From: Escherichia coli
Lineage (GTDB): Bacteria; Pseudomonadota; Gammaproteobacteria; Enterobacterales; Enterobacteriaceae
Strand: one strand, 5' to 3'
Assembly: GCF_003790525.1 (NCBI RefSeq)
Contig: NZ_CP033635.1
Length of the DNA: 64,000 bases
Shown here: piece by piece, positions 6,640-60,342 of the stretch
How positions within the stretch are numbered: position 1 is the first letter of the stretch
Layout of the letters: every line of letters begins with the position of its first letter
The notes under the pieces: generated by a model
Databases searched by the model: none
The model's input: only the letters and a program-made list of their open reading frames with translations
Told to the model about the DNA's origin: nothing
Made by a program: the position numbers and the translations under genes

Positions 6640-8000
6640 TTGTCATCCTCCACGCCCAGAAGGATGTGGATTCCTGCTAATCAGGCTATTGCCGGAATCA
6701 TTTCGGTGGGCTCCTGCTTAAACAAAAGGCCTGACTGCACCATCTCTTTACAGGCAAGTACGGCGTGCCCTGCAGCTAAAATATTACGGGTGCCGTTTAC
6801 ATCGGCGCTCGCTGCATATGTGCGCCGGGCATGGCGCGTAGCGCCGTGACTGGCGCTGTTCTTCAACTGTGGTGGCTGAAGAACGACTAAGAGGTGAAAG
6901 TCCTCCACACACCCGGTGAGGGGAAGTGTTAGCGGAAGGCAAGGGTGTTCATCGCGAGGTGAAATCTGAAGGAAGCCGGATGCAAAATGCTGGCCTGACG
7001 AACAGGAAGCGGTTAAGGCGGCGCAGCAGGGTAAGGTGGCACAAATCACCAAAGCCCGATACTCACACGGAACGCTGTGACGTAAAGCCGACAGGCATAA
7101 GCAGGAAAGTCGCGTGAATTACCCCGGGAGATCTGTCGCCCTGCCAGTGTGCTACCGGTGCCGTGAGGCGCCGGGATGGGGCGGCAGAAGTCAGCCGACG
7201 CCGTAGTAGTGCTGCAAAACCGGCAGCATGAAGGGCCGAACATGATTAACTGTGATTAGGACATCCGAACCCGATGATGATTAATGAAGCACACGCGCAG
7301 GCAACTGCGGCCAGCGGCAGAGGAGACGGACAGTATCCGTCAGGGCTGCATGATGGCGCTGAAATCAGCACGGCGGCGGGTGGGCAAACGAAAGCGGAAG
7401 TGCCGCTGACGATGGAAGCGGTGATAACGAGAGAAAACCTGATGCTGGCTTATCAGCGCGTGGTGGAAAACAAAGGTGTGTCGGAGTTGAAACCGTGGCT
7501 GAAGAAGAACTGGCGCAGCGTATGGCAGGTATTGATTGACGGAAACTACCAGCCGCGGGCAATACGCCGGATGGATATCCCGAAGCCGGATGGCGGCGTG
7601 AGAACCTTAGGCATCCCGACGGTGGTGGACAGGCTTATCCAGCAGGCGATAGCGCAGCAGTTAAGCGCCATCGTGGACACAGCTTCTGCCGCTACGCAGA
7701 CGACTGCAACATCTACGTAAGCAGCCGGAAAGCGGGCGACCATCTGCTGAAGGACATCAGGGCGTTCGTGGAGAGCAAACTGAAACAGAAGGTGAATGAG
7801 AAGAAGAGCGCGGTGGCGCGCCCGTGGGAGCGGAAGTTGTGGGCTGACAGTGACGGACCGTGCTGCTTCACCAAACGCCTTGGACGGCAGGCGGAACTTG
7901 GATCGTTACGTACTTGAAAAGTGGATCAACAAGAGGGTTCAACGAGACTGGGGAGTTATATTTCTTTCTCAAGGTCCGGCATTTATCTCTTCCACATGAA
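6640..8000 (+). mobile_element. group II intron remnant (5' RNA domains plus internally deleted reverse-transcriptase/maturase ORF); boundaries approximate
   Basis: ORF 7274-7720 has the RT domain 0-2 signature (ENLMLAYQRV..IPKPDGGVRTLGIPTVVDRLIQQAIAQQL); a downstream frame has RYADDCNIYV..KLKQKVNEKKSAVARPWERK (RT domain 5-7 and thumb); the intervening RT domains are missing and no domain V/VI was seen. Confidence 0.7.
7274..7720 (+). pseudogene. group II intron reverse transcriptase/maturase, N-terminal fragment (internally deleted, frameshifted)
   Basis: see group II intron remnant; RT motifs split between frames, indicating deletion. Confidence 0.7.
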
Positions 8001-18804: not shown

Positions 18805-20102
<1,298 letters not shown>

Positions 20103-26030: not shown

Positions 26031-26770
26031 TAAATATCCTCCGGCATAGCCGGAGGTTTTTCAAATGCGCCTATAAGGCTCTCTTACCAGCCGCGCCCTA
26101 ACAGGCGCACACGATCTGACATTTGCATCCAACTTCGTTACTCACGGTCCATAAACGCGCTGCCCAGGTAGGGAATCGATAACTGCTCTCCCATTTTATC
26201 CTCTTCAAGCTGGTGCTTTATGTAATCCTGTATCTTCGCCGTGTTCTTACCCACCGTATCGACTTAGTACCCACTGCACCAGAACTCCCTGTTCCTGTAT
26301 TTGAATTTCAAATCACCAAACTGCTCGTAAAGCATCAGACTGCTTTTCCCTTTCAGATATCCCATAAAGCCGGATGCGCTCATTTTGGGCGGGATCTCCA
26401 CAAGCATATGGATATGATCTGCACAGCACTCAGCTTCAAGAATCCGTACGCTTTTCCACTCACACAGCTTTCTCAAAATACTGCCTGTTGCTCTACGCTT
26501 CTCTCTGTAGAACACTTGTCTTCGGTATTTTGGCGCAAAAACTATGTGATATTTACAGTTCCATCGGGGTGCGCTAGCTCTTTTCGTTCCCCATTGGGTC
26601 CCCCTTTTGATTTTTTGTTTGACACTTGCTGTTGCCATACCGCAAGGTGTTTTAACAAATCAAAAGAGGTTTTAATAACTGGCTCAAAACTGAAAGCTTT
26701 CCGGAACCCCCAGCCTGGCTGGGGAGCTGTGCACAAAAAAGCACCTCCACAAACAGGAGGTGCAATTCGA
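26031..26770 (-). mobile_element. IS200 (IS200/IS605 family) element with characteristic left-end hairpins; boundaries approximate
   Basis: TnpA Y1-transposase ORF; left-end terminator hairpin GCACCTCC..GGAGGTGC plus T-run (26735-26763) and second hairpin CCCCAGCC..GGCTGGGG (26707-26725); no terminal inverted repeats, as expected for IS200. Confidence 0.8.
26138..26638 (-). pseudogene. tnpA: IS200 transposase TnpA (HUH/Y1) with in-frame nonsense codon (TAA at 26264-26266)
   Basis: WNCKYHIVFAPKYRR..ILEAECCADHIHMLVEIPPK matches IS200 TnpA; ORF stops at GY* and the same frame continues VDTVGKNTAKIQDYIKHQLEEDK to the natural stop at 26138. Confidence 0.8.
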
Positions 26771-56192: not shown

Positions 56193-57013
56193 ATGCGATT
56201 AGCCAGTCGTTTTGGTTATGCTGCAAACCAGATACGCCGTGACCGTCCGCTGACACATGAAGAACTGATACGCCATGTACCCAGTATTTTTGGGGAAGAC
56301 CGGCACATCTCCCGCAGTGAACGGTATGCGTACATTCCCACCATTACCGTCCTGGAAAATCTGCAGCGGGAAGGCTTTCAGCCGTTCTTCGCCTGCCAGA
56401 CCCGTGTGCGCGACCCGGGCCGCCGGGGATACACAAAACACATGCTGCGTCTGCGGCGGGCCGGAGAGATAAACGGAGAACATGTCCCTGAAATTATTCT
56501 GCTCAACTCTCATGACGGTACCTCCAGCTACCAGATGCTGCCGGGTTACTTCAGGTTCGTCTGCCAGAACGGGTGCGTCTGTGGCCAGTCTCTGGGGAAG
56601 TGCGTGTTCCACACCGGGGAAATGTAGTGGAGAAAGTTATCGAAGGGGCTTACGAGGTGGTGGGCGTGTTTGACCGGATAGAGGAGAAGCGTGATGCCAT
56701 GCAGTCGCTGGTCCTGCCGCCACCGGCACGCCAGGCGCTGGCACAGGCGGCACTGACTTACCGTTATGGTGACGAACATCAGCCCGTCACCACCGCCGAC
56801 ATTCTGACGCCGCGACGCCGGGAGGATTACGGTAAGGACCTGTGGAGCGCATATCAGACCATCCAGGAGAATATGCTGAAAGGCGGGATTTCCGGTCGCA
56901 GTGCCAGAGGAAAACGTATCCATACCCGGGCCATTCACAGCATTGATACCGACATTAAGCTCAATCGCGCATTGTGGGTGATGGCAGAAACGATGCTGGA
57001 GAGCCTGCGCTGA
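56193..57013 (+). pseudogene. DUF932 (YfjQ/YafZ-family) gene, frameshifted
   Basis: two overlapping ORFs (56193-56627, 56573-57013) in different frames; LLNSHDGTSSYQ motif. Confidence 0.6.
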
Positions 57014-57574: not shown

Positions 57575-58066
57575 ATGGAGAGAAGCACAATGCAACAACT
57601 TTCCTTTCTGCCAGGAGAGATGACGCCCGGCGAGCGCAGCCTCATTCTGCGGGCCCTGAAAACCCTGGACCGCCATCTTCATGAACCCGGCGTGCCCTTC
57701 ACCTCCACCCGTGCGGCACGGGAATGGCTGATTCTGAACATGGCGGGACTGGAGCGTGAAGAATTCCGGGTGCTGTATCTGAATAACCAGAATCAGCTGA
57801 TTGCCGGTGAAACCCTCTTCACCGGCACCATCAACCGCACGGAAGTCCATCCCCGGGAAGTGATTAAACGCGCCCTGTATCACAATGCCGCTGCCGTGGT
57901 GCTGGCACACAATCACCCGTCCGGTGAAGTCACACCCAGCAAGGCAGACTGCCTTATCACGGAACGTCTGGTACAGGCACTGGGCCTGGTGGATATCCGG
58001 GTGCCGGACCATCTGATAGTCGGTGGCAACCAGGTTTTCTCCTTTGCCGAACATGGTCTGCTTTAA
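57575..58066 (+). CDS. RadC-like JAB-domain protein (YeeS/YfjY family)
   Basis: JAMM-like motif HNHPSGEVTPSKAD. Confidence 0.8.
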   Translation: MERSTMQQLSFLPGEMTPGERSLILRALKTLDRHLHEPGVPFTSTRAAREWLILNMAGLEREEFRVLYLNNQNQLIAGETLFTGTINRTEVHPREVIKRALYHNAAAVVLAHNHPSGEVTPSKADCLITERLVQALGLVDIRVPDHLIVGGNQVFSFAEHGLL

Positions 58067-58128: not shown

Positions 58129-58350
58129 ATGAAAATTATCACCCGTGGCGAAGCCATGCGTATTCACCGTCAGCATCCGGCATCCCGTCTTTTTTCGTTC
58201 TGTACCGGCAAATACCGCTGGCACGGCAGTGCTGAGGTTTATACCGGTCGTGAAGTGCAGGATATTCCCGGTGTGCTGGCCGTGTTTGCCGAACGCCGTA
58301 AGGACAGTTTTGGTCCGTATGTCCGGCTGATGAGCGTCACCCTGAACTGA
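58129..58350 (+). CDS. yeeT: DUF987 protein (YeeT family)
   Basis: 73 aa; position between RadC-like and cbeA as in CP4-44. Confidence 0.65.
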   Translation: MKIITRGEAMRIHRQHPASRLFSFCTGKYRWHGSAEVYTGREVQDIPGVLAVFAERRKDSFGPYVRLMSVTLN

Positions 58351-58423
58351 GTGGGAATTCTGATGAGCAGAATTATCGCCACTACCGGACCATTCTTAGC
58401 CGATTTTCTGTAAGGATTTTATC

Positions 58424-58792
58424 GTGTCAGACACACTCCCCGGGACAACACTTCCCGACGACAATCACGACCGCCCCTGGTGGGGGCTGCCCTGCACCGT
58501 GACGCCCTGTTTCGGGGCACGTCTGGTGCAGGAGGGTAACCGCCTGCATTACCTTGCCGACCGCGCCGGTATCAGAGGCCTGTTCAGCGATGCAGATGCG
58601 TACCACCTGGACCAGGCCTTTCCGCTGCTGATGAAACAACTGGAACTCATGCTCACCAGCGGTGAACTGAATCCCCGCCATCAGCATACCGTCACGCTGT
58701 ATGCAAAAGGGCTGACCTGCAAAGCCGATACCCTCAGCAGTTGTGGTTACGTTTATCTGGCTGTTTATCCGACGCCCGAAATGAAAAATTAA
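58424..58792 (+). CDS. cbeA: type IV antitoxin CbeA (YeeU), cytoskeleton bundling-enhancing factor
   Basis: 122 aa; sequence matches YeeU as recalled (MSDTLPGTTLPDDNHDRPWWGLPCTVTPCFGARLVQEGNRLHYLADRAG..). Confidence 0.85.
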   Translation: MSDTLPGTTLPDDNHDRPWWGLPCTVTPCFGARLVQEGNRLHYLADRAGIRGLFSDADAYHLDQAFPLLMKQLELMLTSGELNPRHQHTVTLYAKGLTCKADTLSSCGYVYLAVYPTPEMKN

Positions 58793-58880
58793 CTCTCCAG
58801 AATAGCCTTCTGCTACGGCCTGGTGTTTTCACCACGCCACTTTTCCATTTTTATATCTGCATATCAGGAAAATCTTCAGT

Positions 58881-59254
58881 ATGAAAACATTACCTGTATT
58901 ACCCGGGCAGGCGGCCAGTTCTCGCCCGTCTCCTGTTGAAATCTGGCAGATACTGCTGTCCCGACTGCTGGACCAGCACTATGGCCTCACACAGAATGAC
59001 ACACCTTTTGCCGATGAACGTGTGATTGAGCAGCATATTGAGGCAGGCATTTCACTGTGTGATGCGGTGAACTTTCTCGTGGAAAAATACGCGCTGGTGC
59101 TACCGACCAGCCGGGATTCAGCGCCTGTACCCGCTCTCAGTTAATAAACAGCATCGATATCCTCCGGGCTCGCAGGGCGACCGGCCTGATGACCCGCGAC
59201 AATTACAGAACGGTAAATAACATTACCCTGGGTAAGTATCCGGAGGCGAAATGA
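58881..59254 (+). pseudogene. cbtA: type IV toxin CbtA (YeeV), inactivated by a 1-bp frameshift near codon 73
   Basis: N-terminal 72 aa match YeeV; ORF then reads [14 protein letters not shown] while the +1 frame encodes the expected INSIDILRARRATGLMTRDNYRTVNNITLGKYPEAK C-terminus. Confidence 0.8.
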
Positions 59255-59445
59255 TGACACTGGAAGCCGACAGCGTTAACGTACAGGCGCTGGATATGGG
59301 GCACATTGTCGTTGACATTGATGGTGTTAATATCACTGAACTGATTAATAAGGCCGCTGAAAACGGTTATTCACTCCGCGTGGTGGATGACCGTGACTCT
59401 ACCGAAACACCGGCAACTTATGCCAGCCCTCACCAGTTGCTGTAA
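59251..59445 (+). CDS. yeeW: YeeW-like small protein
   Basis: 64-aa ORF overlapping the cbtA stop (ATGA), as in CP4-44. Confidence 0.6.
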   Translation: MMTLEADSVNVQALDMGHIVVDIDGVNITELINKAAENGYSLRVVDDRDSTETPATYASPHQLL

Positions 59446-59828
59446 GACAATGCAGTGATGCAGGGTATAGTGCCATTAACCACAGAAACAGCACTGTTGT
59501 CCTGTATTAAGCAGGCAAGAGAAGATGTCCTTACCCTGCGCCATCTGCAGCTTCTGCACCAGAACCGGTGAATCTCACTCAACAGGCTTCATTTCCCCTG
59601 ACGCCAGCCTGAATACAGCTGGCGTTTTCATTTATAAACAGAAAGGAAAACCGATAATAATGGAATGGACGCCCCGACCATGAAGCAACGGTAGGATATT
59701 ACTGATAAACCTTCCAGTGGAGGTGCGTTATGGCCGTTTTAACGATTAGCATTGACCTGACAAAAAATGAATTCCAAATCCACGGTCTGGGTAGGAACAG
59801 AAAAATCTAAGCTCAGAAAACGGATTAA

Positions 59829-60010
59829 AGTAAGCGTCAACGGAGCACCATATTGACGCTTATTTATTGGTGAGAACTACGTTCCATGGCAGGAGTTCGT
59901 CAACACGGTTGGAGGGCCATTCCGGCAGTATGCTCAGAATATGGCGCAGATACGCTTCCGGATCGATACCGTTCAGACGGCAGGTGCCTGCTTTTCCGGC
60001 AACAAGCAGG
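59829..60010 (-). mobile_element. IS66-family right-end fragment (transposase C-terminal about 45 codons plus terminal sequence)
   Basis: about 90% identical to revcomp of 33590-33670; minus-strand translation GIDPEAYLRHILSILPEWPSNRVDELLPWN. Confidence 0.7.
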
Positions 60011-60014
60011 AATC

Positions 60015-60242
60015 TCAGCGCTGAAGCAGGAATTAGAGGTAAAAACGCCCTACCGGGCCATGAATCACCCGGTCATTGGAGTAGTAACCAAAGCAGATTT
60101 AGCCAGCATGGAACAAATATCTTTGGTGAAATGTTGGTTACGGGAAGCTGGAGCGCACAACGTGTTAGTAACCAGTGCGGTTAATAACAATGGAGTTACA
60201 GAACTTTTTGCCTTGCTGCATACAGAAGAAGGCTGCCGCTAA
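60015..60242 (+). pseudogene. yoeF: yoeF-like pseudogene (C-terminal fragment of a EutP/PduV-type GTPase), truncated by the IS66 fragment
   Basis: translation VIGVVTKADLASMEQISLVKCWLREAGAHNVLVTSAVNNNGVTELFALL resembles EutP/PduV C-terminus; sits next to yeeX as in K-12. Confidence 0.6.
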
Positions 60243-60342
60243 TTTCGATAGGTTCTCAGATGAGAATGATGACGGTGATACACAGATAAGAATCAATGAG
60301 CAATGAGGGTTGCCGGGCAACCCTCATTGAATAAAACAGGAA

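Follow-up and report, generated by a model that had tools for sequence, protein, structure and literature searches.

A very common frameshift allele of the toxin gene cbtA beside an intact cbeA antitoxin gene in Escherichia coli

At the right end of a CP4-44-like island of Escherichia coli, the type IV toxin gene cbtA (yeeV) has lost a single G within codon 74 and lies next to an intact antitoxin gene, cbeA (yeeU). The frameshift is an already known, RefSeq-annotated and very common allele. This allele, cbtA c.221delG, is most probably null, its 87-residue product being predicted to be non-toxic or strongly attenuated, and its presence on diverse chromosomal backgrounds is most simply read as the result of homologous recombination. 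A frameshifted cbtA beside an intact cbeA is thus an ordinary finding.

The two genes occupy positions 58424-59254 of the window, by which we mean the whole stretch of 64,000 nucleotides that was analysed, and they belong to a yeeS-yeeT-cbeA-cbtA-yeeW block (table 1). The island ends on the right with this block, which adjoins the chromosomal genes tmaR (yeeX), yeeA, sbmC and dacD. Scans with Rfam and for promoters and terminators returned no locus-specific feature at cbeA-cbtA, and the spacer between the two genes matched no Rfam family. In the frameshifted cbtA translation stops 106 nt before the native end of the gene. The ATG of the following gene, yeeW, overlaps the native cbtA stop codon in the sequence ATGA (59251-59254); yeeW also has a GGAGG of its own at 59242-59246, as read from the sequence, and consequently need not rely on translational coupling to cbtA. 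A paper of 2026 ties DUF5983, together with an AntiFam-flagged domain, to cbtA operons (PMC13294457). From yeeW onwards (59251-60320 of the window) there follow remnants of DUF957, transposase and EutP/PduV genes, so that the island is degraded at its right end.

Table 1. Position of the cbeA-cbtA locus, its neighbouring genes and the RNA features found elsewhere in the window
Feature	Position	Strand	Evidence or remark
Group II intron domains D1-D4, adjoining maturase gene	6948-7236	+	Rfam, above gathering score, 140 and 72 bits
isrC sRNA	19872-19994	-	Rfam, above gathering score, 150 bits
STnc490 sRNA	26604-26727	-	Rfam, above gathering score, 122 bits
yeeS (RadC/JAB)	57575-58066	+	Pfam and annotation; upstream, same island block
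yeeT (DUF987)	58129-58350	+	Pfam and annotation; upstream, same island block
cbeA (yeeU), intact type IV antitoxin gene, 122 aa, GTG start	58424-58792	+	ORF list; Pfam PF06154
cbeA-cbtA intergenic spacer, 88 bp	58793-58880	+	Identical to K-12
cbtA (yeeV) pseudogene, former coding span of 374 bp versus 375	58881-59254	+	RefSeq 'frameshifted' on identical span
Remaining ORF, 87 aa (CbtA residues 1-73 plus 14)	58881-59144	+	TAA stop at 59142-59144; ORF list
1-bp deletion site, G of codon 74 (CGT, Arg74)	between 59100 and 59101	+	Alignment with K-12 MG1655 and SMS-3-5
Out-of-frame remnant, native CbtA residues 75-124	59102-59254	+	Frame-3 translation; tblastn 100% over 50 aa
yeeW, 64 aa, DUF5983 N-terminal domain only	59251-59445	+	ORF list; Pfam PF25638; annotation

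The lesion itself is simple. Frame 1 of cbtA encodes 73 native residues, ending in EKYALV, and then 14 others before the premature TAA, whereas the native tail, from ATDQPGF to GKYPEAK, is found in frame 3 and runs to the original stop; in this other frame tblastn recovers residues 75-124 at complete identity. Alignment with K-12 places the absent G at the second base of codon 74, so that c.221delG produces Arg74Leu and a shifted frame that meets a stop after another 14 codons. The gap at codon 74 is present in all eight carriers that were sampled and absent from five intact alleles. Within the out-of-frame remnant there are no substitutions among the eight aligned carriers and a single G>A change among 10 further loci. 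The cbtA of the window additionally carries L38Q, at position 58993 in codon 38. A preliminary description of this DNA had reported a full-length cbeA, a 1-bp deletion that shifts the frame of cbtA and a native C-terminus encoded in the downstream frame, all of which the present analysis bears out; only its placement of the deletion after codon 72 needs to be moved by about one codon, since 73 native codons are kept.

In genome collections the allele is abundant. A 67-bp probe for the junction is 100% identical in 1,499 of 5,426 complete E. coli genomes (about 28%, a frequency inflated by heavy sampling of O157:H7), and the exact intact junction of K-12 occurs in 1,789 records of the same collection. 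The whole 831-bp interval of cbeA and cbtA recurs with 100% identity in at least 40 complete-genome records. The exact 87-residue product (protein P0121) is present on at least 1000 contigs of a protein collection and is indexed in 3,289 blocks of an assembly collection; databases list it, for example, as 'toxin of the YeeV-YeeU toxin-antitoxin system'. The RefSeq label of cbtA is 'frameshifted' in each of the seven carrier records that were sampled, namely SMS-3-5, O157:H7 PV15-279, SC516, an ST38 isolate, S1-INA-02-A, DSM 101139 and Res13-Lact-PEA06-10.

The carriers of the deletion include O157:H7, O55:H7, ST38 and SMS-3-5-like strains, as well as several commensal and animal backgrounds, and in every carrier sampled the deletion lies at one chromosomal locus, that of tmaR-yeeA-sbmC-dacD. 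O157:H7, ST38 and SMS-3-5 belong to what we take to be phylogroups E, D and F, respectively. The preliminary description spoke of a loss "in this lineage", a wording too narrow for an allele that occurs on all these backgrounds and in the mosaic haplotypes considered below. The window is nearly identical to SMS-3-5 and to ST648-type genomes, differing from SMS-3-5 by one mismatch and one gap in 14.6 kb.

How the same deletion came to lie in such different chromosomes can be approached by comparing the diversity of the block with that of its surroundings. Among eight carriers, the cbeA-cbtA-yeeW block shows 0-6 substitutions in 1,023 bp (about 0.3% diversity), the core flank from tmaR to dacD 35-59 substitutions in 3,518 bp (1.0-1.7%), and the upstream island genes 25-56 substitutions in 2,253 bp. 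The same pattern is seen in 10 further loci encoding the exact 87-residue product: They lie at most three substitutions from the window in the block and diverge in tmaR-sbmC by as much as 1.3%, and in the upstream part by as much as 2.3%. A sliding-window analysis delimits a trough of diversity at approximately 58326-60074 (pi 0-0.005), comprising cbeA, cbtA, yeeW and the downstream remnant genes; outside this trough, pi is 0.017-0.025 upstream and mostly 0.01-0.02 in yeeA, sbmC and dacD. The trough is common to deletion carriers and to intact alleles such as those of K-12 and APEC O78, and it could have been caused either by recent recombinational spread or by homogenisation with paralogues. 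Mosaic alleles add a second line of evidence. A second truncated variant (P0124), found at the same locus, has the same deletion-bearing 3' segment joined to paralogue-like 5' sequence, and the alleles L026-L029 (compared over the equivalent of 58350-59445) join the same cbtA deletion to a paralogue-like cbeA and 5' part of cbtA, with a changeover at about 59066-59081. The mosaic breakpoints thus lie just 5' of the deletion. The simplest reading is a single origin of the deletion in a K-12-like cbtA allele, with a shallow genealogy of the block and repeated transfer by homologous recombination: c.221delG would have arisen once and then moved onto many chromosomal backgrounds.

This reading raises a further question: Did the null allele become common because the loss of CbtA is advantageous, with positive selection driving its recombinational spread across phylogroups? 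A frequency of about 28% among complete genomes, and backgrounds that differ by 1-2.5% in both flanks, would fit such an advantage, but the collections over-sample O157:H7 and clinical clones, and the intact K-12 junction, with its 1,789 records, is about equally common. The trough of low diversity is shared by the intact alleles of K-12 and APEC O78 and so is not a sweep signature of the deletion. There remain the joining of the deletion-bearing 3' segment to several distinct 5' haplotypes and the many other truncated or frameshifted CbtA-family forms among cluster representatives, both of which point towards selection. On the whole we regard a selective spread as possible but rather doubtful.

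The state of cbeA has been thought to bear on the same issue. Its complete 122-residue ORF lies directly upstream of a CbtA-family gene, as is characteristic of the family, and the protein matches the Pfam family CbeA_antitoxin (PF06154) from end to end (model positions 1-100 of 101, E 4e-53). The product, WP_001285585.1, is the same as in strains with an intact toxin. Among the resolvable carrier loci, cbeA is intact in 19 of 21; a frameshift by an additional C, equivalent to position 58443, is found in a metagenome scaffold (L027), and an in-frame deletion of 15 bp (58439-58453) in another locus (L029). A cbeA of 34 residues at locus L019 is only apparent, being produced by an assembly gap of 2,065 N, and was discarded.

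From the loss of the toxin with retention of cbeA the preliminary description had drawn relaxed selection on the toxin, or counter-selection against it, but the observation says little about selection of any kind. In a toxin-antitoxin pair the toxin must fail first, as loss of the antitoxin beside a working toxin is lethal; an intermediate with an intact antitoxin and a dead toxin is accordingly what one expects, and selection is not needed for it. Moreover, the diversity of about 0.3% in the block corresponds to fewer than about one substitution per 369-bp copy of cbeA since the deletion, and the block is consequently too young for the intact cbeA of 19 in 21 loci to be informative on selection. 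The antitoxin gene would stay intact simply because decay of such a pair is viable only when the toxin is lost first, and because too little time has passed for a disabling hit.

A continuing use of CbeA is nevertheless plausible by analogy with what has been reported for the protein of K-12, which acts on the targets rather than on the toxin, bundling the polymers of FtsZ and MreB (Heller 2017, PMC5624674). CbeA also protects against several unrelated FtsZ inhibitors (Masuda 2012 as cited in Heller 2017, PMC5624674), and CbeA, YafW and YfjZ are interchangeable against all three K-12 toxins (Wen 2017, PMC5371832). The antitoxin might thereby stabilise FtsZ and MreB polymers, or counteract division inhibitors, whether paralogous CbtA-family toxins or others. 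Homologous loci number three per E. coli genome in the median, and within its 64 kb the window contains one copy only of the toxin-antitoxin pair. A query with a paralogue, too, was placed best at the copy of the yeeX locus.

Whether the truncated toxin is truly dead depends on what lies behind the frameshift. The 87-residue product matches the CbtA_toxin family PF06755 over model positions 1-73 of 112 only, whereas a functional toxin consists of an uninterrupted ORF covering about 112 model positions (124 residues in K-12) and, when expressed, is marked by inhibited growth and lemon-shaped, filamentous or round cells. The conserved C-terminal core, formed by R74, D76 and the motif DILRARxATGL, follows the frameshift in its entirety. 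Aligning 27 intact family members gives 45 invariant columns, of which 20 fall in the lost residues 74-124, among them R74, T75, D76, G79 and the SIDILRAR stretch; in a more divergent alignment, R74, D76, D93, A97 and G102 are nearly invariant down to 32% identity. Even the shortest true homologues of CbtA still reach approximately residue 100. The AF2 model obtained with the divergent alignment (mean pLDDT 83.6, pTM 0.75) has helices at residues 18-34, 46-54, 59-70, 91-101 and 109-117, predicting for CbtA one compact five-helix domain from which the frameshift removes the last two helices. Deprived of the R74-x-D76 linker, of the DILRARxATGL helix and of these last two helices, the product would be non-toxic or strongly attenuated.

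These models need to be qualified with respect to the depth of the alignments, on which the AF2 confidence for the C-terminal part of CbtA depended. A first run with a shallow alignment returned pLDDT values below 50 at residues 78-124, as if the frameshift fell at a domain boundary, an idea that was rejected as an artefact of alignment depth. Searching both models against the PDB for similar folds gave nothing with E < 1, and no solved structure of CbtA was found.

The truncated variants themselves offer additional information. They present L38Q (at least 1000 contigs), D40N (418 contigs), L38M and V19I, all at positions that are invariant in the family, and one has R15H, at the MreB-contact residue, which is variable across the family. 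Changes at invariant sites amount to 4 of 10, versus about 34% expected without constraint; judged from the sequences, this is consistent with a relaxed constraint on the truncated variants after the lesion. L38Q is found in the commonest truncated variant, O157:H7-type carriers retain L38, and residue 38 is invariant in the 27 intact members. In the wider CbtA family, most representatives of clusters at 50% identity match only part of the profile, which is consistent with frequent truncation, although fragments at contig ends also contribute.

Against a null allele it may be argued that the 87-residue CbtA is still a working toxin, perhaps attenuated or single-target, which acts through its N-terminal helices on FtsZ and/or MreB and for which cbeA is still needed. 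The residues of target contact, R15 for MreB and F65 for FtsZ, the substitution of which abolishes the respective binding (Heller 2017, PMC5624674), both precede the frameshift and are kept in the product, but conservation is equally strong in the lost and the retained segment, as indicated by the 20 invariant columns of the former and by residues that persist there down to 32% identity. The helices at 18-34, 46-54 and 59-70 are confident in both AF2 runs; if CbtA is the compact five-helix domain of the better model, however, the loss of two helices should destabilise what is left. The lesion leaves promoter, ribosome-binding site and start codon unaffected and the allele is very common, yet common truncated variants have L38Q, D40N, L38M, V19I or R15H replacements, and at least one carrier (L027) has a frameshifted cbeA besides. 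Tan and colleagues (2011) reportedly found that YeeV truncated at its C-terminus still elongates cells; a phrase search of the literature for truncated YeeV or CbtA found nothing. Considering both sides, we judge residual toxicity to be unlikely.

A variant of this argument would give the truncated product a role in its own success: If it is a stable three-helix protein whose activity is residual or altered, it might have aided the recombinational spread of the allele to about a quarter of E. coli genomes. Such activity might be that of a weak single-target division inhibitor, or of a decoy competing with paralogous full-length toxins for FtsZ and MreB. We find this improbable. In a genome-wide association study, resistance of E. 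coli to microcin J25 (MccJ25) had its strongest gene-content association with a non-wild-type cbtA 'allele' (PMC10926693); no link of that allele to the frameshift allele is claimed.

Returning to the allele as a probable null, one may ask if programmed -1 ribosomal frameshifting or transcriptional slippage could yet yield full-length CbtA, a possibility that we consider very remote and have rejected. A -1 shift is required to restore the frame, and the -1 frame is indeed open from 59063 through the native stop; GAA AAA (59082-59087) could permit a -1 slip of a single tRNA-Lys, and a 6-bp hairpin (59093-59111) begins 5 nt after it. However, no in-frame heptamer of the form X XXY YYZ exists in 59040-59100, the AAA codon being followed by TAC, which leaves the single-tRNA A AAA at 59084-59087 as the sole slippery element; the hairpin is weak, the run of A is only five bases, too short for transcriptional slippage, and terminator-like hits in this region do not greatly exceed what shuffling would predict. 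Furthermore, intact alleles have the same A run and hairpin, and in them a shift would do harm, so that these elements did not evolve for recoding. The only in-frame start of the downstream frame gives a tail peptide of 21 residues (beginning MTRDNY), so that no sizeable C-terminal fragment is encoded.

That the base is missing only through a sequencing or consensus error, with cbtA intact in the organism, was named by the preliminary description as the finding that would undo it and is effectively excluded: Single-base indels are the commonest class of assembly error and a suspect one does occur elsewhere in the window, but the cbtA site lies outside any homopolymer (GTGC[G]TACC), the junction is shared by 1,499 independent complete assemblies, the work of many laboratories on many platforms, and both the identical 831-bp block (at least 40 records) and the exact truncated product (3,289 blocks of the assembly collection) recur. 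The suspect indel just mentioned concerns the DUF932 gene at 56193-57013, which is split into two ORFs by the loss of one G from a run of five at 56593 (G5 to G4). Its junction is shared by one of 2,447 records, SMS-3-5 and all sampled relatives having G5, and it may be a mutation private to this genome or a consensus error in the homopolymer.

The remainder of the island is of the same general character. Positions 1-56000 of the window constitute a large mosaic island with elements and remnants of IS150, IS3, IS66, IS4, IS256, ISL3 and IS200/605, and also contain dgo galactonate genes, a second aspA/dcu set and dynamin-like, patatin-like and RdcB-family genes. The SMS-3-5 equivalent of this portion has 50 annotated features, 14 of them pseudogenes; for the entire window the count is 17 pseudogenes among 74 features, many of these pseudogenes being IS remnants. 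The island as a whole is decaying.

The locus carries a caution: When cbtA or yeeV is tallied as a toxin from its name or a Pfam hit, the number of functional type IV toxins will be overestimated in about a quarter of E. coli genomes, O157:H7 included. It would also be a clean natural example of toxin-first decay in a toxin-antitoxin pair and of the transfer of a null allele from one phylogroup to another through recombination. The natural truncation after residue 73 provides a ready construct for asking how far the C-terminal third of CbtA is needed in the inhibition of FtsZ and MreB; residual or altered activity of this truncated form, if true, is the one reading that would raise the interest of the allele.

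Among known systems, the closest is the CbtA/CbeA (YeeV/YeeU) pair in the cryptic prophage CP4-44 of K-12, which lies at the same locus beside tmaR(yeeX)-yeeA-sbmC-dacD and has the same gene order, yeeS-yeeT-cbeA-cbtA-yeeW. From cbeA to yeeW the two differ by four substitutions in 1,023 bp (99.6% identity), and the common locus and near-identical DNA establish the cbtA of the window as an ortholog by descent. The CbeA proteins differ by one residue (G108 in the window, D108 in K-12), whereas the cbtA of the window has one G fewer in codon 74, L38Q and a product of 87 residues versus 124. The upstream part of the island is different, with DUF932 and antirestriction genes in the window and flu-yeeR in K-12. 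The pseudogene ECSMS35_RS05295 of SMS-3-5 has the identical lesion at the identical locus, with 100% identity over 831 bp and no difference in the toxin-antitoxin block. In O157:H7 PV15-279, the pseudogene ECpv15279_RS14500 again combines identical lesion and locus, but has L38 where the window has Q38, together with three other substitutions. Finally, YkfI/YafW of CP4-6 and YpjF/YfjZ of CP4-57 belong to the same Pfam families as the pair described here, PF06755 for the toxins and PF06154 for the antitoxins, but reside in other islands, and their toxins are intact in K-12.
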